A stretch of DNA of 47,952 nt from Planctomycetota bacterium (GTDB lineage: Bacteria; Planctomycetota; UBA11346): positions 1-47,952 of the forward strand of contig JBBQSO010000039.1 in assembly GCA_038213805.1 (NCBI GenBank), in the 5' to 3' direction. The notes beneath the pieces are model-generated. The model had not been told where the DNA came from. It did not search any database and saw nothing but the letters and a program-made list of their open reading frames with translations. Made by a program: the position numbers and the translations under genes. Numbering within the stretch: the first letter of the stretch is position 1; every line of letters begins with the position of its first letter. This document shows positions 1,628 through 38,732 of this stretch, in pieces.

Positions 1628-1811
1628 TAGAACCGCCAAGACGCCAAGACGCCAAAGCTCGAAAAGGGGACGGACACGGAAGTTGGAACCGACGAGCGGT
1701 CAACAGTCTTGAAAGCGGGTGTAAAGGACTGCTTTGTATCCTGCGACCGATCGGGTCAAGGCAGCGCGGCTATCATTCCGGTCTTGGCACCTGTGCGTCT
1801 TGACGGATCTA
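1628..1811. repeat. inverted tandem-repeat element, ACGCCAAG unit
   Basis: Left arm TAGAACCGCCAAGACGCCAAGACGCCAAAG (1628-1657). The right arm (1781-1811) reverse-complements to TAGATCCGTCAAGACGCACAGGTGCCAAGAC. Confidence 0.75.
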
Positions 1812-1861
1812 TCACTCGGGTCGTGATTACGCTGATGGGGCAAGGCCCCGCACCAGAGAAC

Positions 1862-2380
1862 TCAGAGCCCGAATTCCGCCGACAGGCCCACGATCCCCTC
1901 GGCGAAGCGCTGCGCGATCACCACCTCGCCGCGCAACGGACGCGGCGAACCGGCATTGACCTCGGAGATGCGGAACCTGACATCCAGGCCGAAGAGTACG
2001 GTGAGCAGGTCGTTGGTGATCGCGACGCCGAACTCCTTGGCCGCATCGATGGCGCTGACCGGACGGCCCTCGAGGTCGACGACCGCGGCCATGGTCTTGC
2101 CGATCTGCCGGGTCAGCCCGCGGCTCAGACCGATGCTCACCGTGCCGGTGCGCGGACCGGCGAAGCGCACTTCGACGACCAGCTCAAAGCCTTCGGCACC
2201 GGGCGCCGGTATCACCGCCTCCGGAGTCAAGCCGCCAACTGAAACACCGATGCGGCTGAGCGCCTCGGAACTCGCCAGCTGGCGCGCCTCATGCGCGGTG
2301 GCCTGCTCTTGGATGGCAGCGCGGCGCTTTCGGCCCGCTGCAGGCTTGGCCTTGATGCCAGGGGGCGTACGACGACGCAT
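1862..2380 (-). CDS. CheX-like protein (divergent)
   Basis: VRFAGPRTGTVSIGL...DAAKEF...LLTVLFG...F resembles the CheX fold pattern. ATG chosen at 2380; the start is uncertain. Confidence 0.55.
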   Translation of the reverse strand: MRRRTPPGIKAKPAAGRKRRAAIQEQATAHEARQLASSEALSRIGVSVGGLTPEAVIPAPGAEGFELVVEVRFAGPRTGTVSIGLSRGLTRQIGKTMAAVVDLEGRPVSAIDAAKEFGVAITNDLLTVLFGLDVRFRISEVNAGSPRPLRGEVVIAQRFAEGIVGLSAEFGL

Positions 2381-2633
2381 GGGCACTGTTCCCGACGACG
2401 TACCCCCGATGACGGTAGCGAATGCAAGGGGATTGGTGGCTGTCATACCTCGACGCATGAGCGAACCCCATGCCGACGGCTTGAATGGCCCAGCACATGA
2501 CTTAGCACGAGAACTGTCGCACATCAGCGACGTGTCCCAATCACAGTTTGGAAGAAATGCGCGGTTCACACCCGGATTTGCTGCTGTCCCCGAACGGAGA
2601 CGGCCAAAACCCCGCGGCGACATGCCGCCAGAC

Positions 2634-3971
2634 TCAGCGCATGCCGTACTTGTTGATCAGGCGCAAGAGCGCGGTGCGACTCATCTTCAGCGTGCGCGCC
2701 GCCTCGCTGGTGTTGCCGCGCGCGCGCACCAGCGCGCTGCGGATGGCGATCCGCGACCAGTCCTCGGCCGCGCGCGCGCGGCCCTGCTTATAGGCCAGGA
2801 ACGCTGAACCGGCGGGGATGGTATCGAGGTGCTCGCTGCCCAGCGTCAAGCCACCCGCCGGGACGCCGCCACCCATCGACTGTGCGGCGGCCGTGGCGCG
2901 CGCCATGGCGCGCTCGAGCGCGTTGGCGAGCTCACGGACGTTGCCTTGCCAGCTGCGCGCGAGCAGCTGGGCGAGCGCGGTGGCCGAGATCGCATGCCGC
3001 ACGCCGCTCGGCACCCCGCGCGCCAGGATCGCATGCACGATCTGCGGGATGTCCTCGGGATGCTCGCGCAGCGGCGGCAGATTGACGTGCAGCACGTGCA
3101 ACCGGTAGTAGAGGTCCTCGCGGAACTGTCCGGCCGCGACGCGCTCGTCCAGGCGGGTGTTCGAGGCGGCAATGATGCGCACATCGCTGGCCTCGGCGTG
3201 CTCCGAACCGAGCGGCCAGATCTCGCGCGCCTCGATGGCGCGCAGGAGCTTGGGCTGCATCGCCAGGGGCAGCGAGTTGACCTCGTCGAGCAGCAGCGTG
3301 CCGCCGCGCGCCATGGCGAAGCGCCCACGCTTGCGCTGGCCTGCGCCGGTGAAAGCGCCGGCCTCGTGACCGAACAGCTCGCTCTCGACCAGCTCCTGCG
3401 GAATCGCCCCGCAGTTGATCGCGACAAAGGGTCCGGCGGCGCGGCGCGACAGCTGGTGGATGGCGCGCGCAGCCAGCTCCTTGCCGGTGCCGGTCTCGCC
3501 GGTGATCAGCACCGGCGCGTCCGAGCCGGCCGCGACATCGATGTCACCGTAGACCCGGCGCATCACCGGACTGGTGCCGACCAGGTCACCGCGACCCGCG
3601 CCGGCGGCAGCGCGCAGCGCCAGGGTGTGGTCGACCTCGCGCAGGTGCAGCAGCAGCTCGTCGGGATCGAAAGGCTTGGTCAGGTAGGCGCGCGCGCCCA
3701 GGCGCATGGCTTCGACCGCCGAGGCGATGGTGCCGTAGCCGGTCATGACGATGACCTCGAGTCCCAGGCGGCGGCTGCGCGCCTCGCGCAGCAGGGCGAT
3801 GCCGTCGAGATCGGGCATGCGCAGGTCGGTGACCAGGACGTCGGTGTCACTGACCTTGGCCAGGGCCTGGGTGCCGTTGGCCGCCCCGACCACGACGTGG
3901 CCGGCGCGCCGTAGCAGCTCCTCGAGGGCGCTGCGCAGGGCCTCATCGTCGTCGGCGAGCAGGATCTTCAT
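2634..3971 (-). CDS. sigma-54-dependent two-component response regulator (REC-AAA+-Fis HTH, NtrC family)
   Basis: REC (LLADDD, TDLRMPD, KPF), Walker A GETGTGKE, GAFTGA, LLLDEV, FREDLYYRL, WQGNVREL and a C-terminal HTH. Confidence 0.95.
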   Translation of the reverse strand: MKILLADDDEALRSALEELLRRAGHVVVGAANGTQALAKVSDTDVLVTDLRMPDLDGIALLREARSRRLGLEVIVMTGYGTIASAVEAMRLGARAYLTKPFDPDELLLHLREVDHTLALRAAAGAGRGDLVGTSPVMRRVYGDIDVAAGSDAPVLITGETGTGKELAARAIHQLSRRAAGPFVAINCGAIPQELVESELFGHEAGAFTGAGQRKRGRFAMARGGTLLLDEVNSLPLAMQPKLLRAIEAREIWPLGSEHAEASDVRIIAASNTRLDERVAAGQFREDLYYRLHVLHVNLPPLREHPEDIPQIVHAILARGVPSGVRHAISATALAQLLARSWQGNVRELANALERAMARATAAAQSMGGGVPAGGLTLGSEHLDTIPAGSAFLAYKQGRARAAEDWSRIAIRSALVRARGNTSEAARTLKMSRTALLRLINKYGMR

Positions 3972-4042
3972 GGCTGGTCCAGGACAGGATTGGCGCTGGC
4001 GGACTCTGACCGACCCCACGGCATGGGCAAGACCAGCTCCGC

Positions 4043-6832
4043 TCAGCCCGGTGCAACGACTGGGCGCAAGCGTTCGTTCACCGGCAGGAGGATCCGGAAG
4101 GCGGCGCCGCCGGTCGACAGGTTGGCGGCCTTAAGCTCGCCACCATGTGCCTCGCAGATGCGCCGCGCCACCGTCAGGCCCAGGCCGGTGCCGTTGACCT
4201 TGGTGGTGAAGAACGGTGTGAACAACTTCTGCGGGTCTTCGCCTAAACCCGGGCCGTCGTCCTCGATGGCGATGCTCAGGCGCTGCTCGTCGAGGCGCGC
4301 CGCGAGGCGCACGTGGCAGCCGCGATCGAGCGCCTGGCAGGCATTCTCGAGCAGGTTAATGAGCACCTCCTGGAGCTGGTCCGCGTCGCCCGAGATCACC
4401 GGCAGATCGTCGGGAACCTCGACCGCGAAGCGGATGCCCTTGGCCTTCATGCGCCCGGCGAAGAGGTCGGCCACGGTGCGGATGAGCGGCGTGGCCGGGA
4501 CGTTGCCATCGCCGGTCTCGCGCTGGCGGGCGAACCCGAGCAGGTTGCGGACGGTGCGCGCGATGCGGTCGACCTGCTCACCGATCATCACCAGATTGCG
4601 GCTGACGTCGGGCAGGTGTGCGAGGTCGCTGCGCAGCAGGCCGAGCCACGCCTTGATCGCGGCAATCGGATTGTTGACCTCGTGCGCCACCACTGCCGCC
4701 ATGCGCCCGACGGTGGCGTCGCGCTGCGCTGCGGCCAGCGCCGCCTCGCCGCGCTTGCGCTCGGTGATGTCGGCGACCATCGCCACCATGCTGGTGACCA
4801 CGCCATCGCCGCCGCGCAGCGGTGCGACCGCCAGGCTCAGATAGATCGGGCTGCCGTCGCGGTGGCGGCGCTTGACCTCGATGCCGAGCAGGGTCTCGCC
4901 GGCCATCGCACGCTCGCGCAGCAGGTGGAACTCGCGCTGCGCCTCCGCGTCGACGATCGGCAGCGGCCGGCCCATGACCTCGTCCTCGCGCCAGCCGAAC
5001 AGACGCTCGGCGGCGGGGTTCCACACCGACTGCACCAGGCCGGCGCCGTCGACGATGTAGATCGCCAGGGGCGAACCCTGGATCATGGTGCGCAGGATGT
5101 CGTGGGCGCGCTGCAGCGACTCTTCGGCGCTCTTGCGACTGGTGACGTCGGTGAGCACGCCATGCACGAACTGAACGCGCGCAGGGTCGCCGGTCACCAC
5201 CTGGGCCTCGTCGGCGACCCACACCACGCGCCCGTCGGCGGCAAGCAGCCGGTACTCGATGGCGAGCGGCCGGCGTTCCTGCACGGCCGTGGCGCGCGCC
5301 GTCAGCACGCGCATGCGGTCGACGGGCAGCAGGCGGTTGACGTAGAAGGCGGGATTGGTGATCCAGCTCTCGGGCGGGAAACCGGTCAGGCGCGCGATCT
5401 GCGGGCTCAGATAGAGCATGCTGCTGCAGTCGTCGAGCGCAGCGATGTAGGTGACGATCGGGATCTGCTCGATGAGCGTGCGGTAACGCGCCTCGGCCAT
5501 CAGCAGGTCCTGCTCGGCGCGCTGGCGCTCGAGGCGCGTGCGCAGCGCCTGCACCCCATAGGAAAGGTTCTCGGCCAGCTCGCGCAGCAGGTCCACCTCG
5601 TCGCGATCGAAGGCGCCGACCTCGGCCGAGCAGATGATCAGTACCGCAAAGCTGCCGCCGGTCACGCGCAACGGCAGACTGATGATCGCGGCCAGGCCGC
5701 GGCTGGCCGCGGTGGCGCGCCATTCCGGGTAGGTGCCATCGTCCTCGTCGAGGCGGGCGATGGCGATGGTCCCGGTCTTGATGCAGGTCCCGGCGGGGTG
5801 GGCGGCGGCGCGGTCGTCGCCCCAGCCGATGCGCAGGCGCGCGATGTCCTCGGTGCGCAGGCCGGCCATCACCACCGGCAGCACCGCGCGCGTCGGGCCC
5901 TGGTCGGCAGCGCCCACCCAGGCCAAGCGGTAGCCGCCGCGCGCCACCACGATGCGGCAGACCTCGTCGAGCAGGTCGTGCTCGCTGGCGGCGCGATGCA
6001 ACGCCTGGGCGGCCTCGCTGAGCACCTGCAGCGAGCGACCCATGCGGCGCATGGCGAGCTCGGCGCGACGGTGCTGGGTGAGGTCCTGGAGCAGCAGCAC
6101 TGCGCCGGCGCCGGGCGCGCCGGCCATCGGCAGGGCGGTGAAGCGCACATGGCGCAGCGCGCCGTCGCGTACGCGCAGGGTCAGCCAGCACGGCGGTGCG
6201 GGTGCGCGGGTGAACTCGGCGATGCGCTCCCAGCCCATGGTGGTGGCCTGGCCCTGCTCGCCGTGCGCTTCGATGACGGTCAGCAGCTGGCCCAGGGCGA
6301 GGCCCTCGCCCTCGCTGCGGCTCCAGCCGCTGAGGCGCTCGGCGCTGGTGTTGAGCAGCAGCACGATGCCGGCGGGATCGACCGCGATGACCGCATCGGC
6401 GATGCCATCGAGGATCGCGGAAAGACCGGCCTCGCTGCTGCGCACGCGCGTCTCGAGTGCGTGCCCGCGCATGGCGATGGCGATGGCAGCGCCGAGTTGC
6501 TCTCGCTGCGGCGGCTTGACCAGGAAGCCGAAGGGCAGGGTGCGTTGGATGCGTTCGATGGTGCTGACGTCGTCGCGTACGGTCAGGAACACCACCGGCA
6601 CAGCACCGCCCTCGCGCATGCGCTCCGCGGTCTCGACGCCGTCGAGCGCTCCAGCCAGCCCGACGTCCATCACCACCAGGTCGACCTGGCGGCCGGCGAG
6701 GAACGTCAGCGCCTCCTCGCCGGTCGGCACCGCGCCCACCAGTTCATGGCCAAGCGCATGCAAATGGCTTTCGAGCAGACGGACGGTGAGCGGATCGTCC
6801 TCCACGACCAGAATGGTGACACGTGGCAGCAT
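4043..6832 (-). CDS. hybrid sensor histidine kinase REC-PAS-GAF-PAS-PAS-HisKA-HATPase
   Basis: N-terminal REC (VVEDD, MDV, KP), PAS motifs, GAF (YRLAWVG...SLPL), H-box AHEVNNP, N-box NLLENA, DDGPG, FFTTK..GTGLGL. ATG at 6832; no transmembrane helix evident. Confidence 0.93.
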   Translation of the reverse strand: MLPRVTILVVEDDPLTVRLLESHLHALGHELVGAVPTGEEALTFLAGRQVDLVVMDVGLAGALDGVETAERMREGGAVPVVFLTVRDDVSTIERIQRTLPFGFLVKPPQREQLGAAIAIAMRGHALETRVRSSEAGLSAILDGIADAVIAVDPAGIVLLLNTSAERLSGWSRSEGEGLALGQLLTVIEAHGEQGQATTMGWERIAEFTRAPAPPCWLTLRVRDGALRHVRFTALPMAGAPGAGAVLLLQDLTQHRRAELAMRRMGRSLQVLSEAAQALHRAASEHDLLDEVCRIVVARGGYRLAWVGAADQGPTRAVLPVVMAGLRTEDIARLRIGWGDDRAAAHPAGTCIKTGTIAIARLDEDDGTYPEWRATAASRGLAAIISLPLRVTGGSFAVLIICSAEVGAFDRDEVDLLRELAENLSYGVQALRTRLERQRAEQDLLMAEARYRTLIEQIPIVTYIAALDDCSSMLYLSPQIARLTGFPPESWITNPAFYVNRLLPVDRMRVLTARATAVQERRPLAIEYRLLAADGRVVWVADEAQVVTGDPARVQFVHGVLTDVTSRKSAEESLQRAHDILRTMIQGSPLAIYIVDGAGLVQSVWNPAAERLFGWREDEVMGRPLPIVDAEAQREFHLLRERAMAGETLLGIEVKRRHRDGSPIYLSLAVAPLRGGDGVVTSMVAMVADITERKRGEAALAAAQRDATVGRMAAVVAHEVNNPIAAIKAWLGLLRSDLAHLPDVSRNLVMIGEQVDRIARTVRNLLGFARQRETGDGNVPATPLIRTVADLFAGRMKAKGIRFAVEVPDDLPVISGDADQLQEVLINLLENACQALDRGCHVRLAARLDEQRLSIAIEDDGPGLGEDPQKLFTPFFTTKVNGTGLGLTVARRICEAHGGELKAANLSTGGAAFRILLPVNERLRPVVAPG

Positions 6833-6995
6833 CGACCGCCCAGCGTTCCCGGGGGGCGGGGAATTCAATCAGAGAGCGGCAAGCAGGGCACGGGGGCGGT
6901 AGGGAAGCAGGGTCGGCAGCCGCCGTGTGACCTATCGCCTACGGGCGCCCCCCTCCGACCGTCGCTTGCCGTCCTCCAAGCCCGCCTCCCGCAGG

Positions 6996-8024
6996 CTAAT
7001 CCATGCGCACAACCCGCCGCGTGAGCATGAAGAACGGTACCAGGAGCAGGATAAGCAGTCCGCCAAGCGGATGGGCTGAAGTCGCGACCAGCGCATCGAG
7101 GAGCATGATCCCGCCGAGGGCGGCGCCGACCACCGGCCCGACCAGTGCGGCGCGGCCGTCACGCAGGGCGGCGAGATAGGGCTTGGCGACGCTACGCAGC
7201 AGCCACACGAACAGCACCGCACCCAGGCCGAAAGCCATGGCCATGCCCACCACCTGCAGGGCGCCGTCGCCCTGGGTGATGCGCGGTAACCAGTGGGCGC
7301 GAACCAGCAGGACGCCGGCGGCGAGGATGGCGCCGAACACCAGCGCGCCACCGATGAGCAGCTCGAGGCGGCGGCCCGCGCGGCTCTCAAGCTCGGAGAT
7401 CAGCGTCACGCCCAGGATGTAGGCGCCAAGCACAAGCGGATAGACCAGTAGGTAGCCCTGTCCAGGAGCCGCCACCGGACCGAGCACGGCCAGTTGCAGG
7501 TAGTCGGGCCCGAGCAGCAGCAGCGCGAAGATGGCGTGCGCGAAGCGCACCAGCGCCATGGTCAGGCTGCCCAGGTACGGCACGTCCTTGGTCACCAGAT
7601 TATAGAGGAAGATCAGCGACAGCACCACGCCGGCTGCATAAAAGCTGTGCGGCGGCCCGTGCTGCGGCGCGCGCTGGAGGTCGACCATCGCGGCGCACAG
7701 CAGCGCCCCGACCGCGAACACCACGCCCGCGACGTAGGCCGCGGCGAGGTTGATGCGCCCGGACGGCAGCGGCCGGCGCGGATGCAGGGTGCGGTCGCGG
7801 TCGACGTCGGCGAGGTCGTTCCAGATCATCCCGGACAGGTAGAGCAGGAAACTCGCTGCGATCACCCACAGCACGCGGATCTCGCCACCCTGGGCGAAGC
7901 GCTTGGCGAGGATGCGCAGATCGAGCGCCTCGCTGGCATAGACCGCCATCAGCACCGCGGCGGTGAGGTTGCTGACGATGGTGAACAGCCCGGACACGCG
8001 CACCAGCTTCAGCCAATCGAGCAT
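6996..8024 (-). CDS. UbiA-family prenyltransferase (EboC-like N-terminus)
   Basis: WNDLADVDRD...RPLPSGRI Asp-rich motif and multiple hydrophobic helices. ATG at 8024. Confidence 0.85.
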   Translation of the reverse strand: MLDWLKLVRVSGLFTIVSNLTAAVLMAVYASEALDLRILAKRFAQGGEIRVLWVIAASFLLYLSGMIWNDLADVDRDRTLHPRRPLPSGRINLAAAYVAGVVFAVGALLCAAMVDLQRAPQHGPPHSFYAAGVVLSLIFLYNLVTKDVPYLGSLTMALVRFAHAIFALLLLGPDYLQLAVLGPVAAPGQGYLLVYPLVLGAYILGVTLISELESRAGRRLELLIGGALVFGAILAAGVLLVRAHWLPRITQGDGALQVVGMAMAFGLGAVLFVWLLRSVAKPYLAALRDGRAALVGPVVGAALGGIMLLDALVATSAHPLGGLLILLLVPFFMLTRRVVRMD

Positions 8025-8076
8025 GGCGGATGTGCTTACCGGCTGGCGCGGAGGAACCAAGGGGACAACCTCATTT

Positions 8077-8224
8077 CAGACCCTAGACGCTAGACCCTAA
8101 ACTCTAGGTCGTGGCACGGTGTGGCTGATCGGGACCGACGTTGGGAAAACCTCACTCGGGAGAAATGGCGCGCCATCGCATCCCCGCAGCCAACCTCATC
8201 CCAGTACCTAGGGTCTAGGGTCTG
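8077..8224. repeat. inverted tandem-repeat element, GACCCTA unit
   Basis: CAGACCCTAGACGCTAGACCCTAAACTCTAGG (8077-8108) versus ACCTAGGGTCTAGGGTCTG (8206-8224). Confidence 0.8.
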
Positions 8225-8237
8225 CGCCGCCCCGGCG

Positions 8238-9362: not shown

Positions 9363-9378
9363 GGCCGGGCATCCGGGA

Positions 9379-9508
9379 AGTGCGGAGTGCGGGGATATCC
9401 GGAAGCTCTCTGATGAACCGGCGCGTTGCGCATCTGACCACGTTGGACCAAGCGCCCGACGCGGGAAGCGCCACGCACTCCACACTCCGCACTCCGCACT
9501 CCGCACCC
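9379..9508. repeat. inverted tandem-repeat element, GTGCGGA unit
   Basis: AGTGCGGAGTGCGGGG (9379-9394) versus CCACGCACTCCACACTCCGCACTCCGCACTCCGCACCC (9471-9508). Confidence 0.8.
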
Positions 9509-9543
9509 TCCGCCGTCCACCCCTGCAGCGCGGTCCGGCGGCT

Positions 9544-10029
9544 TCACTTCGGCGCGACGCCGCGATGCTCCCGCGCGATGCGGTCGAGGACGCCATTGAC
9601 CAGCTTCGCGGTCTTGGCGTCGCTGCCGAACTGCTTGGCCAGCTCGATGTACTCGTTAATCGCGACCTTGGGCGGGGTGTCGGCGCAGTAGAGCAGCTCG
9701 TAAGCGCCCAGGCGCAGCACCGCGCGGTCGGCGACAGCCAGGCGGTGGATGGTCCAGTTATCCAGGCGCTGGTCGACCGCCGCATCGACCGCCGGACGTT
9801 CGGCCGCGAAGCCGCGGAACAGGGTGAGCGCGAAGGCCTGGGCCTCGGGATCGAGGCCCTCGCTGGCGTCGGTCGGCAGCAGCATGCCATCGTCGACGTA
9901 GCGGTTCTGTTCGAAGCTGTAAAGCAGCTGCAGGGCGAGCTCGCGACCGCGGGTGCGCAGCGCGCTGCGGCCGCGCGGGTTGGCGAGGCGGCCGGTGCCG
10001 GTGCCGGAAGTGGTGCTGGGTTCGTTCAT
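9544..10029 (-). CDS. nusB: transcription antitermination factor NusB
   Basis: RTRGRELALQLLY, DRAVLRLGAYEL, PPKVAINEYIELAKQF, VNGVLD; lies downstream of ribH. Confidence 0.95.
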   Translation of the reverse strand: MNEPSTTSGTGTGRLANPRGRSALRTRGRELALQLLYSFEQNRYVDDGMLLPTDASEGLDPEAQAFALTLFRGFAAERPAVDAAVDQRLDNWTIHRLAVADRAVLRLGAYELLYCADTPPKVAINEYIELAKQFGSDAKTAKLVNGVLDRIAREHRGVAPK

Positions 10030-10043
10030 CGCTGCGGTCCGGC

Positions 10044-10592: not shown

Positions 10593-10794
10593 GGCTGACG
10601 GCTGACGGCCGAAGACAGATAGAACAGGAGTGACGCGGAGACGCGGAGATCGGAAGGAGGTAGACATCGGGTTCGCCTGACGGATCCCGGAAGCAGAGGC
10701 CGCTCAGCCCGGGCTGTTCTCCTCCGGTCTCTGCGCCTCCGCGCCTTGTTCTATCGGCGGTCGGTTGTCGGCGGTTGGCTCCAACCCGTCAGCC
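10593..10794. repeat. nested inverted tandem-repeat element (outer GCTGACG, inner ACGCGGAG)
   Basis: Outer arms GGCTGACGGCTGACGG (10593-) and CCGTCAGCC (10786-10794). Inner arms GATAGAACA...GACGCGGAGACGCGGAGA (10618-10649) and TCTCTGCGCCTCCGCGCCTTGTTCTATC (to 10755). Confidence 0.8.
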
Positions 10795-10801
10795 CCTCCA
10801 T

Positions 10802-21307: not shown

Positions 21308-22339
21308 TTAATCAGGGCTTCCGTGATTCCGTTCGGCAGCGGCCCCGGCCTCGTCGAAGCGCGTCTGGAGCGCCGGCGCGAGCTCACCGGCGGCCAGCGC
21401 CAGCATCAGCAGCACGCGCGCCTGCTGCGGGTCGAGCCGGCGCGCGGCGATGAAGCCATAGGCGTCGTCATCGACCTCGATGCCACGGGCCACGCCCCCG
21501 CCGGCCACACGGCTGCTGCGCACCACGGCGATGCCAGCGCGCGCCGCGGCGACGAGCGCAGCGAGGGCATCCGTCGCCGCATTGCCGGCGCCGACGCCGG
21601 CCAGCACCAGGCCGCGCGCGCCGCTCGCGACGGCATGATCGATGAGTTCGCGGCCCATGCCGGCATAGGCGTGAATGATGTCCACGCGTGGCAGGGCGGC
21701 GGGCAGGGCGGCAGGAACGGCTGATGGCTGATGGCTGATGGCTGATGGCGTGGTGAAATTCGGTCCAGCCGGGCCGCAGGCGCCTAGGGGCGGCGCAGCG
21801 ACCGAGCCCAACGCTGCGAGCGCGGTGGTGTGCAGCTTGCGCACGGCGCGCGCGCCGTGGATCGCTCCAGCCATCACCACCAGTACTCCACGCCCGCGCG
21901 CCGCCGGGCTGGCGGCGACCGCCACGGCGTCGTTGAGGTTGCGGGGACCGTCGGCGTGCGCCGCCGTCGCCGGGCGCATCGCCCCGGTCAGCACCACCGG
22001 CATGGCGCCGGACAGGACCAGGCCCAGGAAGTACGCGGTCTCCTCCATGGTGTCGGTGCCATGCGTGACCACCACGCCGGCGAGCGTCGGATCGCCGGCG
22101 AGTTCGTGGAGGCGCCGCGCCAGCGCCAGCCACTGCTGCGGCCCGATATCCTGGCTGCCGAGGTTGCACAGCTGCTCGCCAGTGATGCGCGCGAGGCGCG
22201 CAAGTTCCGGCACCGCCGCCAGCAGGTCGGCGAGTGGGCGGCTGCCGGCGCGGTAGCCCGCGCCCGTGCCGGTCGCCGCGATGGTGCCACCGGTGGCGAT
22301 GAGATGGACACGCGGTAGCGCAGCGGGCGTATTCGCCAT
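21308..22339 (-). CDS. L-asparaginase/glutaminase family protein
   Basis: IATGGTIA, GVVVTHGTDTMEETAY, VLTGAMRP, ADGPRNL, AGVGAGN. ATG at 22339; no signal peptide. Confidence 0.92.
   Translation of the reverse strand: MANTPAALPRVHLIATGGTIAATGTGAGYRAGSRPLADLLAAVPELARLARITGEQLCNLGSQDIGPQQWLALARRLHELAGDPTLAGVVVTHGTDTMEETAYFLGLVLSGAMPVVLTGAMRPATAAHADGPRNLNDAVAVAASPAARGRGVLVVMAGAIHGARAVRKLHTTALAALGSVAAPPLGACGPAGPNFTTPSAISHQPSAVPAALPAALPRVDIIHAYAGMGRELIDHAVASGARGLVLAGVGAGNAATDALAALVAAARAGIAVVRSSRVAGGGVARGIEVDDDAYGFIAARRLDPQQARVLLMLALAAGELAPALQTRFDEAGAAAERNHGSPD
21719..21749. repeat. intragenic heptamer tandem repeat (GGCTGAT)4
   Basis: Four perfect units at 21719-21746 plus GGC, within the segment encoding PSAISHQPSA in the asparaginase. 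Confidence 0.92.
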
Positions 22340-30069: not shown

Positions 30070-30157
30070 CCGGCATTGCGCAGGGCCGCGGCGCAGCACG
30101 GAGGACCGTGGGCGGCGGCGTGGCTTCGCCACCGCCGGCCCGCGCTCCGTCAGCGAG

Positions 30158-32920
30158 CTACTTCCCCGGCACCTTGTTGATCGTATCGAACACTTTGTAC
30201 TCGATCGCCGCGTGCTCGGCGGATTCGATGCGCATCTCGATGCTCATCTGCATGACCGGCGCGATGCCGGGGATGGTCAGGCTCACGGACTTCTTGTCGG
30301 CGCTCAGCACCGCGGCGGTGGCGTCGACCTTGTCGTGGCCCTCCTTGGCGGGGTCGGTGACCTTGTAGTCCTTCGAGCCGTAGTTGGAGGTGTAGCGGTA
30401 GTTCCAGCGCTCGATCGCATAGTTGGCGACGTCGGCGGCGGTGGCCGGGTCGAGCGCGTGGTCGAAGCCAATGGTCACGCCGGTCGGGGTGACGTGGAAC
30501 GAGGTCGGCATCAGCACCGGCTTGCCGGTGTAGCGGATGCGCTGGAAATTGCCGTCGTGCGAGGCGCTGGTCTGCCAGCCGCGCATACCCGTGACGTACA
30601 GCGCGTGGTCGGCGCCGAAGCGGGCGCGCATGGTGCCGGAGCCGAAGCTGAGCGGGAAGAACACCATCGCGGCCTGCGGCGTGCCGTCGACCTCTTCGGG
30701 CAGCACCGCGAACATGCTGCACTTGCCGTACGAGAAGCCGATCGGCACGCCCGTGAACGGACCCCACTGGTCGTTGTTGACGTAGGCCAGGCCGCCCGGC
30801 GAATTGTCGAGGTTGTAGGGCGTCCACAGCAGCGGCGGATCGTAGGTGGTCGGCTGGGTGTCGCGGTGGGCGGTACCCATGAAGCCGTAGAAGCCGCCCT
30901 CCTTGACCAGGTTGATGCGGTCGACCGGCGTCCAGTTGCCCTGGTTGTCGGAGGTCAGCAGCGGATAGCCGTCGCCGCCGCCCAGGCCGTTGGGCTCGCG
31001 CAGGCCGGTGGCGTAGCGCGTCATGGTCTTGCCGTCCTTGCTGACCTTCAGCACGCAGCCCTGCACCTCGCTGGTGGCGTCGGTGAAGCCGGAACCGAGG
31101 TTCGAGCCCTTGGTGAAGAGGAAGTTACCCTCCTTGTCAGTTTCGAGGTCGGTGCAGAACTCGTGGTAGTGCTTGGTCACCGGCGCGTCGGCGTTGAAGC
31201 TCTCGTAGAAGTCGGCCTCGCCGTCGTTGTTGAGGTCGTGCAGGCGCACCAGGCGGTCGCGGCAGGTGACGTAGATCAGGTCATCGACGATGCGCACGCC
31301 CAGCGACTGGAACAGCCCGGTCGCGTAGCGCTTCCAGGTGATCTTGGCCAAGCCGGCGTCGATGCCCGAGACCAGCCACACGTCACCGTCCATGGTAGTC
31401 ACGGCGGCGCGCGTGCCGTCCTTGAAGAAGTCGTGGCCGGTCAGGCGCATGTAACTTTTGTAGGGGTTCTCGTACGGAACCGGGATGGAGTCGACCACGT
31501 AGGGACCATCGCCCTTGCCGAGCTCGCCGGCGACGGTGACGGTCTCGGCCCAGCGCTGCGGCCCACCCTTGGTCAGCGCCAGTGCATTCGTCGGCTTGGC
31601 GGCGGCGGCGAGGAAGGCGGTGAAGGCGGGCAGCGCGGTGCGCTCGCCCTTCCAGATCGCGACCTTGACCAGCGCGCTGCCGGCGGGGATCTGCAGGTCG
31701 AGGCGGCCGTCGATGGCGGCCACGGTGCCACCGCCACCGATCACGCCGACGGCGGTCACCGTGCCACCATTGTCGAGCACGCCGACACCGCCCTCGACCG
31801 TGGCCTTGCCGCCCTCGGCGAGCACGGTGGCGAGCGCCACGCTGTTCTTGGCGAGGCTCAGGGTGCGGGTGATCGCGTCGACCGCACCCGCGTGCTCGAA
31901 GCCGGGCACCTCGAGGATGTCGGCGCCGCCGACGCTGTAGGACAGCACGGTGGTGTCGCCATGCAGGTAGAGGCCGCGGTAACGCGCCCATTCCGCCGGC
32001 AGGTTGCCGAGGTGCTTGGCGCGCGGATCGACGACGTCGGCGCTGCCGGGCCGGCTCCAGCCGGCGAGGCCGGTGCTGGCCTGGGCGGCGAAGGTCATCT
32101 CGCCCTCGAGCTCGGGCTGGCCTTCGATGCCGTCGCGGCCAGCGGGGAAGATCATGGCGGTCTCTGGGCCGCCACAGGTCACGCGCAGCAGCTCGGTGTC
32201 GAAGACCACGCGCGCGCCGCGCGCCTTGTCCAGGGTGATGACCAGACCCTTGTTGCTGCACACGTTGCCGGGCTGGACGATGGTGCCGGCCACGAACGGA
32301 CCGTGATCCATGACCGCGTACTTGCCGGTGCCGGCAGAGGCGCCGCCCTTGAACTTCTTCCAGGCGGCCTCGTCCCAGGTGATCGCCTCGGCGCCGGCGA
32401 CGTGGCTCAGCGCACTGGCGGGGATGGCCTCCTCCTTGCCGTCGGGGGTCTTCCACAGCAGCTTGCACACCGCCTCGCCGCCGCCTTGGATGTACTCGAG
32501 CTTGAACTGGTGCGCGCCCGCGCCGAGTTCGATGGTGCCGTCCTTGCGGATAGCGGCATGGACGCCGCCGTTGTCGACCACCGGCTTGCCGTCGACGAAC
32601 AGGCGCGACCCGTCATCGGACTCGGTGGCGAAGGTGTAGAGGCCGGCCTTGGGCGCCGTGAGGCTGCCTGTCCAGCGCACACTGAAGTTCTCGTGCAGCT
32701 TGGATTTGCCGAAGTCGCCGCCGCTGGTGCTGTAGCTGACCTTGCCGTCGACGCGCACCAGGAAGGGCTTGGCGTCTTTGAGCTCGTCGGGGTAGCTGGT
32801 GGTGTCCTTGAAGAACTCGGCGACCAGCCCGGGGGCGTCGGCAGCGTGTGCAGCGCCGCCCATGCTGACCAGGATGAGGCCGGCGATGAGACGTTCGATG
32901 CTGGGGGTCGGCAGGCGCAT
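30158..32920 (-). CDS. exported PA14 + DUF6797-like + beta-propeller (sugar dehydrogenase-like) protein
   Basis: Signal peptide ending AHA; PA14 motifs FSVRWTG, ESDDGSRL, NGGVH; RGLYLHG; ATGLREPNG; DNQGNWTP. GGAG Shine-Dalgarno before ATG 32920. Confidence 0.8.
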   Translation of the reverse strand: MRLPTPSIERLIAGLILVSMGGAAHAADAPGLVAEFFKDTTSYPDELKDAKPFLVRVDGKVSYSTSGGDFGKSKLHENFSVRWTGSLTAPKAGLYTFATESDDGSRLFVDGKPVVDNGGVHAAIRKDGTIELGAGAHQFKLEYIQGGGEAVCKLLWKTPDGKEEAIPASALSHVAGAEAITWDEAAWKKFKGGASAGTGKYAVMDHGPFVAGTIVQPGNVCSNKGLVITLDKARGARVVFDTELLRVTCGGPETAMIFPAGRDGIEGQPELEGEMTFAAQASTGLAGWSRPGSADVVDPRAKHLGNLPAEWARYRGLYLHGDTTVLSYSVGGADILEVPGFEHAGAVDAITRTLSLAKNSVALATVLAEGGKATVEGGVGVLDNGGTVTAVGVIGGGGTVAAIDGRLDLQIPAGSALVKVAIWKGERTALPAFTAFLAAAAKPTNALALTKGGPQRWAETVTVAGELGKGDGPYVVDSIPVPYENPYKSYMRLTGHDFFKDGTRAAVTTMDGDVWLVSGIDAGLAKITWKRYATGLFQSLGVRIVDDLIYVTCRDRLVRLHDLNNDGEADFYESFNADAPVTKHYHEFCTDLETDKEGNFLFTKGSNLGSGFTDATSEVQGCVLKVSKDGKTMTRYATGLREPNGLGGGDGYPLLTSDNQGNWTPVDRINLVKEGGFYGFMGTAHRDTQPTTYDPPLLWTPYNLDNSPGGLAYVNNDQWGPFTGVPIGFSYGKCSMFAVLPEEVDGTPQAAMVFFPLSFGSGTMRARFGADHALYVTGMRGWQTSASHDGNFQRIRYTGKPVLMPTSFHVTPTGVTIGFDHALDPATAADVANYAIERWNYRYTSNYGSKDYKVTDPAKEGHDKVDATAAVLSADKKSVSLTIPGIAPVMQMSIEMRIESAEHAAIEYKVFDTINKVPGK

Positions 32921-32994
32921 GGGTCGGGGCTCCGGAGGACTAAGGGTGGATCGCCAAGCGGTACCAGAGGGTGCCGGCGCTGTTGAGGGAAATA

Positions 32995-33008
32995 TGGAAG
33001 CGCTCCCA
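32995..33008. promoter_or_regulatory. LacI-type operator candidate TGGAAGCGCTCCCA
   Basis: One mismatch from the TGGGAGCGCTCCCA palindrome. It abuts a possible minus-strand promoter TTGCCA(33033-33038)-N17-TCAACT, whose -10 is weak. Confidence 0.6.
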
Positions 33009-33332
33009 CAGTTGACGACGTCATACAAAAATTGGCAAGAGGGGAACCATGTCCGTGCGAGGCTGGTGGAGCAGCCGCCATGTCCACTCCCGCGGCGCAG
33101 GGCAGTCACCAACCATGCGCCCGTGCCGAGTGATGCACCAGGACCAGCCTGGACGTCGCGTTACAACCGGTTGCCGGATCTCCACTTCATTACCTCGCTG
33201 CGCCACCAGTCCCGCTTCCCCGCGGCCCTCTCCGCAAACCCGCCATCCTCGGCGGCGGCATGTTGCGCTACAACATACCCGTCCTCCCTCCGGCATCCGG
33301 GTTAGACTTCTCCACTGGCCCCGACCTCGACC

Positions 33333-35825
33333 ATGACCGCCATGCCCGTGCCCATTCTGCTCTTCGCCATGCTGTTCGTGACCGCGCTGGCGGGCGCGCC
33401 GCTGTGCGCCGAGAGCGCCGCCGACCGCGAGCGACTCGCCAAAGGCGCCGCCGCGACCTTCGAGCACGACATCCGGCCGCTGCTCGCGCGCTACTGCGCC
33501 GAGTGCCACGGCAAGGATAAGCAGAAGGGCGACGTCGACTTCTCACACCTCGCCACCGGCGCGGCCGCGCTCAGCGAGCGCACGCTGTGGAAGTCGGTGC
33601 GCGAGCAGCTCGGCAACGGCGTCATGCCGCCGCCCAAGCAGAAGCAGCAGCCGGACGCCGCCGAGCGCGAGGCCCTATTGACCTGGATCCGCACGCTGCG
33701 CGCTCTCGACGCGCCCGATCCCGGCCGCGTCACCGCGCGCCGCCTGAACCGCGCCGAATACGACAACACGATGCGCGACCTGCTCGGACTCGACGCCAAG
33801 CCGGCGGCGGACTTCCCCTTCGACGACGTCGGCAGCGGCTTCGACAACAACGGCGATGTGCTGTCGATCTCGCCGCTGCTCATGGAAAAGTACCTGGTCG
33901 CCGCTGACGCGCTGCTCGACAAGGTGGTGGTCGACGACCAGCTGAGCATGAGCGTGTTCGGAGTCGAGATGGCCGCGACCGTTGACGGCCGAAGCGAAGC
34001 CGGCCGGCCGGTGTCGACCGGGACGGCGAACCAGAAAGACAAGGAGACCGCCGAGTCGCGCGAGGCGCGCCGCCGCATCTTCACCGGCCCCGGCGAGGTC
34101 GCGACCACCTTCACCGCGCCCAAGGACGGGCGCTACACCATCAAGGTGCGCGCCGGCGGCGAGGCGGCGGGCGGCGAGCCGATCGCCCTCGCGGTCAAGG
34201 TCGACGGCCAGCTCGTCGGCGAGGCGCGCGTCACCGTCGGCCTGCGCTCGCCCACCGCCTATTCGGTGACCACCCCGCTCGGCGCCGGCGTGCGCACCCT
34301 GACGGTGATCTGGATGAACCCGAACAGCGAGCCGCCAGCGCCGCCGGGGTCCAGCGCGACGCCCGCGGCGCCTGCGGCCCCCGCGCCGGCCAAGCCTGCG
34401 AAGCCGGGGACGGCCAAGCCCGCGACCGCGAGCACCCCCAAGGCCGCCAGGACCGGCGCGACCAAAGAGCGCGCCCTGGCCATCGACGGCATCGACATCA
34501 TCGGCCCGCCCGCGGGCATGCCCAGCGAGCTGCACAAGCGCCTGTTCGTGGCCGTGCCGGGCAAGGATCTCGAGCGCAAGGCCGCCGCCCAGCGCATCGC
34601 CGAACGCTTCGCGCTGCGCGCCTTCCGCCGCCCGGCCAGCGACGAGCAGATCGAACGCCTGCTGCGGGTCTTCGCGCTCGCTGACGCCCAGGGCGAGGTT
34701 TTCAGCGAAGCGATCAAGCTGATGCTGAAGGCCGCGCTGATCTCGCCAGAGTTCTTCTTCCGCATCGAGGACGACCACCCGGCCGACAGCGCCGGGATCT
34801 ACGCGATCGACGACTGGGAGCTGGCCACGCGCCTGTCCTACTTCCTGTGGTCGACGATGCCCGACGAGGAGCTCTTCACCCAGGCCCGCTCCGGCAAGCT
34901 GCACGAGCCCATGGTGCTCGAGGCGCAGGTGCGGCGCATGCTGAAGGACACGAAGAGCCGCGCCCTGGTCGACAACTTCGCCGGCCAGTGGCTGCAGCTG
35001 CGCAATATCTTCATCGCCACCCCCGACCAGAAGGCCTTCCCGGAGTTCACCAAGGATGTCCGCCAGGCGATGTACGACGAGGGAGCGCTGTTCTTCGACG
35101 CCATCCTGCACGAGGACCGCAGCATGCTGGAGTTCATCGACTCGGACTGGACCTTCCTCAACGCCCGCCTCGCGAAGTTCTACGGCATCGCCGGCGTCGA
35201 GGGCACAGCGATGAAGAAGGTCCAGCTCAGCGACCCCAACCGCGGCGGGGTGATCACCCTGGGCGCGTTGCTGACTGTGACCTCGACGCCGACGCGCACC
35301 AGCCCGGTCAAGCGCGGCAAGTGGGTGCTGGAGGAGATCCTGGGCACGCCACCGCCGCCGCCGCCCGCGGTGGTGCCGCCGATCGAGGACCAGGAGCGCA
35401 AGGACGGCGGCAAGCAGACCATGCGCCAGATGCTGGTGCGCCACCGTGCGGACCCGGGCTGCGCCTCGTGCCACGTGACCATGGATGCGATCGGCTTCGG
35501 CTTCGAGAACTTCGACGTCGTCGGACGCTGGCGCGACCACGACACCGGCGGCCCCATCGACAGCGCCGGCGAGCTGCCCGGCGGCCGGCGCTTCAGCGGA
35601 CCGGCGCAGCTCAAGAAGCTGTTCATGGAGCGCAAGGACGACTTCGTGCGCGTGTTCACCGGCAAGCTCATGACCTATGCGCTCGGCCGGCGCATGGAGG
35701 ATCCCGACGAAGCGGTGATCGACCGCATCGCCGCGGCGGTCGCTGCCGACGGCTACCGCATGAGCCGCCTGATCATCGAGCTCACCCGCAGCTACCCCTT
35801 CCTCAACCGCCGCCTCGCCCGCTAA
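33333..35825 (+). CDS. DUF1592-family planctomycete cytochrome c protein (PSCyt/DUF1587/1595/1592/1588/1585)
   Basis: CAECH; RRLNRAEYDNTMRDLLG; RAFRRP; LATRLSYFLWSTMPD; TSPVKRGKWVL; CASCH. Confidence 0.9.
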   Translation: MTAMPVPILLFAMLFVTALAGAPLCAESAADRERLAKGAAATFEHDIRPLLARYCAECHGKDKQKGDVDFSHLATGAAALSERTLWKSVREQLGNGVMPPPKQKQQPDAAEREALLTWIRTLRALDAPDPGRVTARRLNRAEYDNTMRDLLGLDAKPAADFPFDDVGSGFDNNGDVLSISPLLMEKYLVAADALLDKVVVDDQLSMSVFGVEMAATVDGRSEAGRPVSTGTANQKDKETAESREARRRIFTGPGEVATTFTAPKDGRYTIKVRAGGEAAGGEPIALAVKVDGQLVGEARVTVGLRSPTAYSVTTPLGAGVRTLTVIWMNPNSEPPAPPGSSATPAAPAAPAPAKPAKPGTAKPATASTPKAARTGATKERALAIDGIDIIGPPAGMPSELHKRLFVAVPGKDLERKAAAQRIAERFALRAFRRPASDEQIERLLRVFALADAQGEVFSEAIKLMLKAALISPEFFFRIEDDHPADSAGIYAIDDWELATRLSYFLWSTMPDEELFTQARSGKLHEPMVLEAQVRRMLKDTKSRALVDNFAGQWLQLRNIFIATPDQKAFPEFTKDVRQAMYDEGALFFDAILHEDRSMLEFIDSDWTFLNARLAKFYGIAGVEGTAMKKVQLSDPNRGGVITLGALLTVTSTPTRTSPVKRGKWVLEEILGTPPPPPPAVVPPIEDQERKDGGKQTMRQMLVRHRADPGCASCHVTMDAIGFGFENFDVVGRWRDHDTGGPIDSAGELPGGRRFSGPAQLKKLFMERKDDFVRVFTGKLMTYALGRRMEDPDEAVIDRIAAAVAADGYRMSRLIIELTRSYPFLNRRLAR

Positions 35826-35838
35826 CAAGGACGCTGCC

Positions 35839-37266
35839 ATGCATCCGCATACCCGCCGCTGGCTCCTGCCCCGCCGCACCCTGCTCAAGGGTGTCGGCGC
35901 GGCCCTCGCCCTGCCGCTGCTCGAGACCATGGGCTGGGCCGATCCGCCCCGCGCCGGTGGCGCCTACCGGCCGCCGGTGCGTCTGGCCTTCCTCTACGAG
36001 CCCAACGGAGTGATCCCCGAGCACTTCTGGCCTAAGGACGAGAACATCGGCCAGGGCGCCCCCCTGCCGTCGACGCTTGAGCCGCTGCGCCCGCACCTGG
36101 GCGAGACCCTGATCCTGGGCGGCCTGAGCCACAAGAACGGCAGCGGCGACGCGCCCGGCACGCATGCGCGCGAGGCGGGCACCTACCTCACTGGGACGCG
36201 CATCGCGATCAACGCGGTCAAGACCGGGATCTCGGTCGACCAGGCGATCGCCCAGAAGATCGGCGCCTACACCGCGCTGCCCTCGCTTGAGCTCGGCACC
36301 ATGCCGGCGCCCGCTGCCGGTGACTGCACCGCGGGCTACAGCTGCGCCTATTTCAACTTGTCGTGGCGCTCATCGACCCAGCCGATGCCGAAAGAGATCA
36401 ACCCGCGCGCCGTGCTCGAGCGCCTGTTCTCGTCGCGCAAATCACGTCCGGCGCGGCGCCCGGTGGCAGGCGCCGACACCGGAAAATACGTGGTCGCCGC
36501 CGATGCCGATGCCGCGGCCGGCCCGTCGCTCGACCAGAGCATGGTCGACATCGTCATGGACAGCGCCAAGAAGCTGCGCGAGCGCATCAGCGGCAATGAC
36601 CAGCACAAGCTCGACGAGTACCTCGACGGCATGCGCTCGCTCGAGAGCCGCATCCAGGCGATCGAGAAGCAGGCCGCCGACCAGGCGCAGAACGCGGTGG
36701 CCAAGAAGTCCTACAAGACCTCGCCGCTGATCGAGGTGAAGGCCACCGCGATCCCCGACAAGTTCCACGAGCACGTGCAGCTGCTGATGGACCTCATCAT
36801 CCTCGCCTTCCAGAGCGACACCACGCGCATCACCACCTTCATGATGGGCCAGATGTACCGCGCGCGCGGCTTCCCCGAGATCGGCATCAGCGACGACCAC
36901 CACTCGCTGTCACACCATTTCGACAAGCCCGAGCTCAAGGAGAAGCTGCGCAGGATCGACGCCTACTACATGGAGCAGTTCGTCTACATGATCAAGCGCA
37001 TGAAGGGCCTCAGCGAAGGCCCCGGCACGCTGCTCGACAACTGCATGCTGGTCTACGGCGCCGGCCTGGGCAACGGCTTCTCGCACAGCCCGGACAACTT
37101 GCCGACGATCATCGCCGGCAAGGGCGGCGGCACCATCCGCCAGGGCCGCTACGTGGCCAAGTGCAAGGGCAACATGAGCGACCTGCTCATCGGCCTCGCC
37201 GGGCGCATGGGCGTCGAGCTGCCGAATTTCGGTGACGGGACCAAGGCCCTGCCCGACCTGGCGTGA
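35839..37266 (+). CDS. DUF1552-family protein (Tat signal)
   Basis: RRTLLKG; PVRLAFLY.PNG; ISVDQAIA; SLELG; AFQSD.TR; HHSLSHH; TLLDN. Confidence 0.9.
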   Translation: MHPHTRRWLLPRRTLLKGVGAALALPLLETMGWADPPRAGGAYRPPVRLAFLYEPNGVIPEHFWPKDENIGQGAPLPSTLEPLRPHLGETLILGGLSHKNGSGDAPGTHAREAGTYLTGTRIAINAVKTGISVDQAIAQKIGAYTALPSLELGTMPAPAAGDCTAGYSCAYFNLSWRSSTQPMPKEINPRAVLERLFSSRKSRPARRPVAGADTGKYVVAADADAAAGPSLDQSMVDIVMDSAKKLRERISGNDQHKLDEYLDGMRSLESRIQAIEKQAADQAQNAVAKKSYKTSPLIEVKATAIPDKFHEHVQLLMDLIILAFQSDTTRITTFMMGQMYRARGFPEIGISDDHHSLSHHFDKPELKEKLRRIDAYYMEQFVYMIKRMKGLSEGPGTLLDNCMLVYGAGLGNGFSHSPDNLPTIIAGKGGGTIRQGRYVAKCKGNMSDLLIGLAGRMGVELPNFGDGTKALPDLA

Positions 37267-37271
37267 CCGAC

Positions 37272-37408
37272 AGTCCGGAAGTCCGGAAGTCCGGAAGTCT
37301 CGTGCTGAAGGGCGATGCGCCTGTCGCGCCAACGAGGGCGTGGGCCGTGGACGTTTCGCCAGGCCGGGCTCGTGCCGTCGATCATCAGGACTTCCGGACT
37401 TCCGGACT
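37272..37408. repeat. inverted tandem-repeat element, AGTCCGGA unit
   Basis: (AGTCCGGA)3AGTC at 37272-37299. Bases 37389-37408 are the perfect reverse complement of 37280-37299. Confidence 0.9.
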
Positions 37409-37414
37409 CTTCCC

Positions 37415-38557
37415 TCACTGCTGCTGCGGGAAGCCGAGCGGGAGCGTGATGTTGACCGCGAACTCGCCGGTGCCGTCGAAGACGTGGGCGCGGCGGGTGT
37501 CGACGGCGATCTGCACCTGTGCACCGGGCTGGACGCGGTGATGGGCGTCGCACTTCATCACCAGCGCGGCGTCGCCGGCGGCACGCAAGTGGACGCACTG
37601 GTGGTCGCCCATCAGCTCGGCGAGCCGCACCTGCATGGGCAGGACGGTTGCGCCCGGGGCCGGCGCGGCATAGGCGACGTTGGTGAGGTGCTCGGGGCGC
37701 ACGCCGAGCACTGCCGGGCGACTGGCCATATCGCGCAAACGGCCCAGCTCGGGCATCGCCAGGCCGAGCTCGCCCCCGCCTTCTGGCCGGAATGACCAGT
37801 CCCCACCCGTTGCGATGCACGCACCGGACAGGACGTTCATCGCCGGCGCGCCAATGAAGCCCGCGACAAAGCGGTTGTAGGGATGGTCGTAGATCACCCC
37901 CGGCGGCGCGACCTGCTGGATCGCGCCGGCCGACATCACCGTAATGCGGTCGCCCAGGGTCATCGCCTCGATCTGGTCATGGGTGACGTAGATCATGGTG
38001 GTCTGCAGGCGCTGCTGCAGGGTCTTGAGTTCGAAGCGCATGTCGGCGCGCAGCTTGGCGTCGAGATTGGAGAGCGGCTCGTCGAACAGGAAGACCTGGG
38101 GCTGTCTGACGATGGCGCGGCCGAGAGCGACGCGCTGGCGCTGGCCGCCGGAGAGCTGGGCGGGCCGGCGCTCGAGCTGCTCGCCGAGTCCGAGCAGCTG
38201 CGCAGCGGCGCGCACCTGCGCATCGACGCGCGCCTTGGGCACACCGCGCAGGATCAGGCCGTACGCCATGTTGCGGTAGACGGTCATGTGCGGGTAGAGC
38301 GCGTAGTTCTGGAAGACCATGGCGATGTCCCGGTCCTTCGGTTCGACCTCGTTGACGCGCCGCGCGCCGATGCGGATCTCGCCGCCACTGGCGTCCTCCA
38401 GCCCGGCGATCATGCGCAGCGTGGTGGTCTTGCCGCATCCTGACGGCCCGACCAGGACCATGAACTCACGGTCGCGGACGTGCAGAGTGACGCCTTTAAC
38501 GGCCGGGAAGCCGTTGGCGTAGGTCTTGTCCAGATCGACCAGATCGATTTCAGCCAT
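37415..38557 (-). CDS. sugar ABC transporter ATP-binding protein (MalK/UgpC family)
   Basis: [41 protein letters not shown] and a C-terminal TOBE region with LGVRPE. Confidence 0.95.
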
Positions 38558-38575
38558 GCCGACTTCCTGACACCG

Positions 38576-38732
38576 CCGGGTGCGGAGTGCGGAGTGCGGG
38601 ATGCGGGGTACGAAAACCTCGTGGGCTCTGGAAAGCCGCGAAGCCCATGAGCGGCGGGACAGACATGGTGGAACCCGGCGACATCGTGGCGGCACCGCAC
38701 TCCGCACGCCGCACGCCGCACGCCGCACCCGG
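38576..38732. repeat. inverted tandem-repeat element, GTGCGGA/GTGCGGC unit
   Basis: CCGGGTGCGGAGTGCGGAGTGCGGGATGCGGGG (38576-38608) versus CCGCACTCCGCACGCCGCACGCCGCACGCCGCACCCGG (38695-38732). Confidence 0.88.

Follow-up and report, generated by a model that had tools for sequence, protein, structure and literature searches.

Short tandem heptamers of intergenic DNA include the short tandemly repeated repetitive (STRR) sequences of cyanobacteria. Small, numerous, hairpin-forming extragenic elements that are non-autonomous form another well-known category, comprising the miniature transposable elements with inverted repeats (MITEs), the repetitive extragenic palindromic (REP) sequences and the REPINs with their RAYT transposases. 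In Xanthomonas, intergenic runs of about four GGGAATC units, which form convergent inverted pairs in 70 and 75 cases, are depleted between divergent genes, and their function was left unexplained (Rehm et al., 2015; PMC4692102). The TAACTGA repeats of Beggiatoaceae, Cyanobacteria and Bacteroidetes are likewise intergenic, and some are translated in frame (MacGregor, 2015; PMC4679880). The intervening sequences (IVS) of 23S rRNA that bear an open reading frame (S23p/PF05635) lie within helices of the rRNA, from which RNase III removes them (Warrier et al., 2016; PMC4990558). Here we describe elements detected in a 47,952-bp contig (JBBQSO010000039.1, the window) of a Planctomycetota genome (GCA_038213805.1), in which tandem runs of a 7-8-base unit form two inward-facing arms around a core that is mostly gene-less and that in some copies contains a gene of the IVP or the GxxExxY family. 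Similarly to the TAACTGA repeats, the arms consist of short intergenic heptamers, and TGGCTGA of the present elements differs from TAACTGA by two transitions. However, the TAACTGA repeats have been described as direct repeats located before start codons (169 sets, one indirect), unlike the inverted pairs described here, and the terms 'four helix' and 'intervening sequence' do not appear in that account (PMC4679880).

The source genome (G000) consists of 5.5 Mb in 180 contigs, with 69% GC and an estimated completeness of 90%; the window is its contig C39. Genes of the window were called with a codon model built for this analysis and named by family scans, which also revealed domains of planctomycete type. 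The gene labels guaB/guaA, rtcB/rtcA, sucC/sucD and uvrA on other contigs are presumptive and reflect recognition of the sequence.

Architecture, unit switching and turnover

Intergenic tandem runs are abundant in the source genome, where the runs of period 7 and 8 group into few unit families and make up about 300 elements. The arms are about 22-33 bp of a family-specific unit, the median core is 91 bp and the median element 147 bp. Neighboring arms no more than 700 bp apart face inward in 299 cases, outward in 5 and in the same direction in 29, and inverted partners 50-150 nt away number 392, compared with 12 direct, 2 reversed and 16 complemented ones (arms counted from both sides). Under a strict test that required two exact units and an 11-nt inverted partner in gaps of 80-700 bp, 226 of the 2171 gaps were positive, compared with 0-2 in each of 10 shuffles, so that the inverted pairing emphasized in the preliminary description of the window clearly exceeds the null expectation. 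The elements are found in 60 of the 338 convergent gaps, 134 of the 1250 co-directional gaps and 32 of the 583 divergent gaps, with the upstream (5′) arm located a median of 16 nt past the stop codon. Four whole elements and several lone arms lie in frame inside genes of the source genome; the element inside a uvrA-like gene is still in frame in the related genome G010 although its core has diverged.

At many loci, the arms adhere to a unit that is specific to the lineage. Matches to GGCTGAT and GGCTGAC occur at ratios of 980:41 in the source genome, 119:151 in G010 and 23:39 in G003. Among 60 mapped G010 arms, 41 have an arm in the source genome; the source copy is the richer in GGCTGAT in 26 cases and the G010 copy in 5, with 10 ties, and 17 of the 28 orthologous G010 arms that are free of GGCTGAT consist mostly of this unit in the source genome. 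Mutation of methylated cytosine, or of its sequence context, was rejected as the cause because the same contexts outside the arms differ at only 3-9% of the sites (2/58 to 39/445), although the source genome does have a mild C-to-T excess overall (3181 vs 2119). The 15 element pairs that were compared include seven with homologous cores, five with cores not significantly alike and three for which core similarity was not computed. In four of the seven pairs with homologous cores (homology at p 0.002) the unit has switched on both arms, and in four other pairs the arm family is retained around an unrelated core. Mixed arms are polarized, with GGCTGAT outside and GGCTGAC inside in 31 cases versus 1 in the opposite order (43 vs 5 over all runs; 7 to 0 at the G010 loci), and in the AGTCCGGA family the minority variant occupies the outer unit. 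Mirroring between the two arms of an element was not seen, the similarity being 0.765 within and 0.761 between elements (n 30).

Gene ends and tolerant protein loops are the places where elements are gained, lost, eroded or exchanged for others. The possibility that they are mobile had been raised at the outset, and presence/absence polymorphism is indeed apparent, orthologous junctions of relatives being empty, shared, decayed or occupied by another unit family. From 53 G010 element sites tried, 9 without a two-sided orthologue were left out; at the other 44, the source genome has the same family (27), one arm (2), another family (3) or no element (12), and several of the latter 12 sites contain decayed copies. 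Of 33 elements of the source genome with a G003 orthologue, seven are shared, one is represented by a single arm and seven by another family; among the 18 junctions scored as lacking an element, 11 measure 5-61 bp and two hold a further unit type by eye. At the guaB/guaA junction, an IVP cassette occurs in the source genome and G010; the G003 junction measures 35 bp, and G007-G009 have short hairpins built of other units. At rtcB/rtcA, the source genome, G010 and G005 have different GxxExxY cassettes, the one in G003 is broken, and G001 has nothing there; this junction, which also accepts unrelated low-GC genes without arms (L218 of G007 and L219 of G005), is a general insertion hot spot. Target duplication was not found among 30 ACGCGGAG elements (mean shared run 3.4 nt, 3.5 nt in controls), the family to which the test was confined, given that the termini of the others are too fuzzy. 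In RibD scans for strain-level alleles, none of the 3 and 9 loci obtained was closer than the relatives from the genus, and no outgroup was found for site C30. Tandem duplications at L208 (G008), L155 and L120 (G010) and C31:15992-16400 of the source genome, three of which take in the end or start of a neighboring gene, suggest that junction alleles are taken up from relatives in a homology-anchored manner.

The cores are unique. Non-arm similarity among 275 cores is limited to one tandem duplicate and two weak pairs, and none of the 292 gene-less cores matches the cargo profiles better than shuffled sequences do, so a reading of the 'empty' members as traceable deletion derivatives is not supported. 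Between the source genome and G010 (25 elements), identity is 0.934 in arms, 0.861 at four-fold sites, 0.827 in other intergenic DNA and 0.707 in cores, and core length is correlated (rho 0.79). We rejected core hypermutation and read the cores as neutral passengers, because the four-fold sites used for comparison are under constraint, with a GC content of 93%, and the divergence of decayed arms looks similar by eye. The element at a sucC-like gene has an in-frame left arm, and its core is formed by the Lys/Ala-rich coding tail of that host gene; six other genomes possess the tail without that arm. This case is an exception: junction-length and coding tests led us to reject the possibility that cores in general are resident host DNA, since at 11 of the 33 junctions in G003 a length of 5-61 bp leaves no room for the core, and most cores therefore are not resident. 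The histone-like Lys/Ala-rich tail itself is seen in all 8 genomes of the genus in which the sucC-like gene was seen (L234, L235-L241). Empty elements show no intrinsic left/right orientation: AB pairs number 6, compared with an expected 7.8, and there is no bias in sense. No residual core ancestry was detected within four of the five families; the excess core similarity in the ACGCGGAG family probably stems from untrimmed arm ends.

Cargo-bearing copies and their proteins

The source genome holds five IVP genes (TIGR02436, PF05635; four-helix bundle) and one GxxExxY gene, and cargo-bearing copies with the same arm families as the gene-less elements were found for two of the former and for the latter: the IVP cassettes on contigs C19 and C29 are enclosed by GGCTGAT and AGTCCGGA arms, respectively, and the GxxExxY cassette on contig C28 by ACGCGGAG arms. 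The remark in the preliminary description that similar repeats flank such genes agrees with the data from relatives, in which inverted arms were identified at 24 of the 27 GxxExxY genes examined (63 matches in total) and at 22 of the 54 IVP genes examined (175 matches). The remaining three IVP genes of the source genome sit in mostly armless clades. In the IVP genes without inverted arms (L002, L003 and L004, on contigs C6, C9 and C115), the region upstream of the start contains a common, conserved leader of about 100 nt next to GCGAG-type repeat runs; this leader may be a structured RNA or another type of element.

The arm unit tracks the cargo clade. GTCCG-type units correspond to one IVP clade (99/89), and ACGCGGAG arms unite the source genome with G020, which belongs to a different genus (99/97). 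Gene-less elements with GTCCG 7-mers are present in 6 of 41 genomes, all from this genus, and three of these have an armed IVP gene of the matching clade. The GxxExxY protein matches PF13366 (E 3.5e-37) and yields no match to the sequences of solved structures; given its predicted PD-(D/E)xK fold (model pLDDT 94) and the D...ExK residues D68, E78 and K80, which are invariant or nearly so across 25 homologues, it is a predicted PD-(D/E)xK nuclease. The genes found in long cores are restricted to IVP, GxxExxY and a single membrane-protein gene, the last of these encoding 114 amino acids, resembling host DNA and lying between GGCTGAT-type arms of which the right one is weak (C34:31765-32290). In G032, 53 IVP matches, many with internal stops, represent a burst of an IVP-bearing element.

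Elements of the window

All seven elements of the preliminary description are present, each with inverted arms, and the codon-based gene calls agree that six lie between co-directional genes and one between convergent genes (Table 1). The number of repeat units is six rather than five, and the claim that the termini are not conserved is incorrect for the ACGCGGAG family, whose arm of about 44 nt is shared with the GxxExxY cassette. Among the 21 window gaps of 80-700 bp, four are positive in the strict test (shuffle mean 0.0, 200 shuffles). The right arm is degenerate, with 1-2 good units, in the elements at 1628 and 18187 and in the outer pair at 10593.

Table 1. Repeat elements of the window, with coordinates and arm complementarity
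Feature	Position	Arms and remarks
ACGCCAAG-family element	1628..1811	1628-1655/1784-1811, 79% complementary over 28 nt; right arm degenerate
AGACCCT-family element, ribD/UbiA-family gene junction	8077..8224	8077-8093/8208-8224, 94% over 17 nt
GTGCGGA-family element between nusB and ribD	9379..9508	9379-9392/9487-9500, 100% over 14 nt
Outer GGCTGAC-family element, encloses a second element	10593..10794	Right arm weak; fold z -6.0
Inner ACGCGGAG-family element	10618..10755	10634-10654/10723-10743, 86% over 21 nt, nested in the weaker outer pair
GGCTGAC-family element directly after stop codon	18187..18319	18193-18210/18302-18319, 83% over 18 nt; right arm weak
Lone GGCTGAT arm, 4.4 units	21719..21749	Falls, in frame, within the linker between two domains of an asparaginase gene (21308-22339, minus strand); absent from the preliminary description
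AGTCCGGA-family element between convergent genes	37272..37408	37272-37295/37385-37408, 96% over 24 nt
GTGCGGA-family element within a sugar ABC transporter operon	38576..38732	38576-38612/38696-38732, 84% over 37 nt; fold z -4.9

Three of the window elements are related to cargo cassettes: the unit family of the 1628 element is related to GxxExxY-type arms, both arms of the inner element at 10618 align with those of the GxxExxY cassette on contig C28, and the arm family of the 37272 element is that of the IVP cassette on contig C29. The 8077 junction is a hot spot, where five unit families alternate across nine genomes: G003 has the same element, G010, G005, G007 and L283 have other families, and the three genomes represented by G001, L284 and L288 have no element. 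The 1628 junction contains no intact element in G003 or G010. The 9379 element is common to G010, the G003 junction is empty (22 bp), and G005 and G007 carry a GTCCGAT-type element. At 10593, G010 has the GGCTGAC element without the inner one and G003 has a ACGCCAAG element. The 18187 element is common to G010, replaced in G003 and absent from G001, G005 and G007. In G003, the 37272 junction is occupied by a nested element built of two other units, and the 38576 junction measures 57 bp and lacks an arm pair.

The asparaginase linker of G003 is one residue shorter and is devoid of a perfect repeat, and the lone arm at 21719-21749 would be a seed or a decayed arm; the peptide that it encodes recurs in two other genes of the source genome (C61:8065 and C73:12890). 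Gene order near 37272 also differs between genomes: an FG-GAP repeat protein is encoded at 42075-43319 of the window, and in G010 an FG-GAP-like gene directly follows a DUF1552 gene.

Interpretation and comparison with known systems

With a probability of roughly one half, the elements belong to a dispersed cassette system that operates at the DNA level and of which they form the gene-less majority; its arms would be recognized in trans and renewed through the copying of other arms, initiated by a nick. Under this scenario, the arm would be the functional unit, recognized by the cassette proteins IVP and GxxExxY; a nick at or beside the extruded arm, introduced by the GxxExxY nuclease or by a host structure-specific nuclease, would be repaired by copying another arm, whereby arms would be installed or refreshed; and the pairing of both arms with a donor could lead to a swap of the core or to the landing of a cargo gene. 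The empty elements would then be landing pads rather than decayed genes. With regard to the concerted unit change as such, we lean modestly toward templated rewriting over selection for a protein-binding site.

Several observations weigh against the cassette interpretation. Inverted arms are missing at 32 of the 54 IVP genes examined, and no armed cargo gene of the AGACCCT, GTGCGGA or ACGCCAAG families was found in the source genome (90% complete). The joint travel of unit and protein demonstrates co-inheritance rather than recognition. The cores are neither copies of one another nor fragments of host coding sequence (2.6% vs 1.7% of shuffles), and no insertion event was caught, in the form of either a target duplication or a clean empty/filled pair at high identity. 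The structural neighbors of GxxExxY, Cas4 and the Hjc resolvases, are weak matches (best E 0.002). The G010 loci were picked for GGCTGAC runs, which inflates the direction of the unit switch, albeit not its size, and this direction is uncertain given the fragmentary G003 data. Finally, a tract of about 30 bp, as in arm-to-arm conversion, is short for recombination of the RecA type.

The suggestion that the elements are RNA-level intervening sequences, that is, stems cut from polycistronic mRNA, or stabilizing it, in an RNase III-like fashion as in 23S rRNA, appears unlikely, although such a function was favored in the preliminary description. It would fit the strong predicted RNA folds at 10593 and 38576 (Table 1), the position of the 5′ arm shortly after the stop codon, and the nature of the cargo, which belongs to the IVS protein family PF05635, RNase III excision of IVS being on record (PMC4990558). 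The sequences nevertheless speak against an RNA-processing role, in that sense-strand stem mismatches are symmetric, with no G-U excess (G-U 132 vs A-C 125), and U tracts are lacking. Furthermore, the elements are most common between convergent genes, where no cistrons need separating, and whole elements are kept in frame inside four genes, in the uvrA-like case in G010 as well, which argues against quantitative RNA cleavage; the concerted unit change is left without explanation. We similarly doubt that these are hairpins tolerated or domesticated by the host (terminators, exonuclease blocks or nucleoid sites) that arose by slippage and are kept by selection, with the cargo genes simply adjacent. 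The enrichment at 3′ ends and convergent junctions, the depletion at divergent ones, the conservation of the arms and the 27 of 44 G010 elements shared with the source genome (compare 83% shared in Xanthomonas; PMC4692102) are all compatible with such a role. However, a U tract follows the stem in 11 of 166 cases on the sense strand and in 9 on the antisense strand, which amounts to no intrinsic-terminator signal, the loops are about 90 nt long, five unit families alternate at one junction, the same arms accompany cargo genes across genera, and slippage by itself predicts neither an inverted partner nor a single polarity.

Two further alternatives seem very unlikely. Templated end-addition, whereby a telomerase-like polymerase would extend each of the two 3′ ends of a nicked DNA stretch with repeats, so that arms face inward, can stand alone and acquire new units at their outer side, accounts for the fixed polarity, the gradient toward outer GGCTGAT, the lone arms, the equal similarity of arms within and between elements and the host-derived core of the sucC-like gene. 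A bacterial reverse transcriptase (RT), DRT10, reportedly makes tandem repeats. In addition, IVP resembles Avd, an RT accessory protein (PMC10053308). These points are countered by the lack of an RVT_1 (PF00078) match in the source genome (90% complete), the non-repetitive parts of the ACGCGGAG arm, the G003 junctions that are too short to have supplied a core (11 of 33), and the outer position of the minority variant in the AGTCCGGA family. Ordinary MITEs or REPINs mobilized by a known DDE or Y1 (RAYT) transposase would match the size (120-180 bp), the terminal inverted repeats, the intergenic, nested and patchy occurrence, and the conserved termini of the ACGCGGAG family. On this model, however, core families and target duplications are expected, and neither was seen beyond the tandem duplicate and the two weak core pairs; among the four Y1 transposases above the cut-off, none has arms within 700-900 bp (DDE families were not searched), and one sub-threshold Y1 match has a ACGCCAAG element nearby.

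Extending the cassette interpretation, we tentatively entertain a novel class of mobile systems in which proteins encoded by the cassettes (a pentamer resembling Avd, and a PD-(D/E)xK nuclease of small size) would write and rewrite tandem-repeat arms on chromosomal DNA, with hundreds of gene-less elements as unit-specific landing pads and the heptamer repeats at large (STRR, TAACTGA, GGGAATC) as footprints. Bacterial heptamer repeats have been known for decades without a mechanism, which the two accounts cited here leave open (PMC4692102; PMC4679880). Each repeat family described here has a candidate cognate protein, and the one-base unit switch around retained cores is a natural test of specificity. 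If the arms are rewritten in trans, DNA would have a new route of targeted change; if they are instead binding sites under selection, a ligand would be at hand for two large protein families that are uncharacterized.

Compared with the Xanthomonas repeats, the elements share intergenic heptamer runs in convergent inverted pairs and their relative scarcity between divergent genes, but the GGGAATC repeats form one unit family, which has been read as a G-quadruplex (G4), whereas six or more units occur here, most of them not G4-forming by inspection; the accessible part of that account gives no cargo genes, unit switching or replacement (PMC4692102). As in the 23S rRNA IVS, which are sporadic and horizontally acquired, a PF05635 gene lies between complementary arms in the cassettes on contigs C19 and C29 (PMC4990558). 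Unlike the IVS, the present elements are located between or inside protein genes, have arms of tandem units, also carry GxxExxY cargo and are mostly gene-less; no Rfam match was obtained in the window, whose elements all lie between protein genes (rRNA genes elsewhere were not searched). MITEs, REPs and REPINs are set apart by the lack here of a shared core, a target duplication or any armed transposase that could be found, and by tandem-unit arms that change in concert. IVP is homologous to the Avd protein of diversity-generating retroelements (DGRs; PMC10053308), but no RT (PF00078) was found in the 90% complete source genome, there is no template/variable repeat pair, and core differences strike A and T alike (0.38 and 0.40, with strands pooled and changes not polarized). 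The elements lack features, among those tested, that define IVS, MITEs, REPINs, DGRs and terminators. No description of tandem-unit arms linked to IVP or GxxExxY genes was found in the literature searched, which did not cover most subscription journals and supplements. Convergent heptamer pairs as such are already in print (PMC4692102), and the link to cargo cassettes was not encountered in that literature; what is new is the concerted switch between GGCTGAC and GGCTGAT around retained cores, the polarity along the arms, and a host coding tail that serves as a core.

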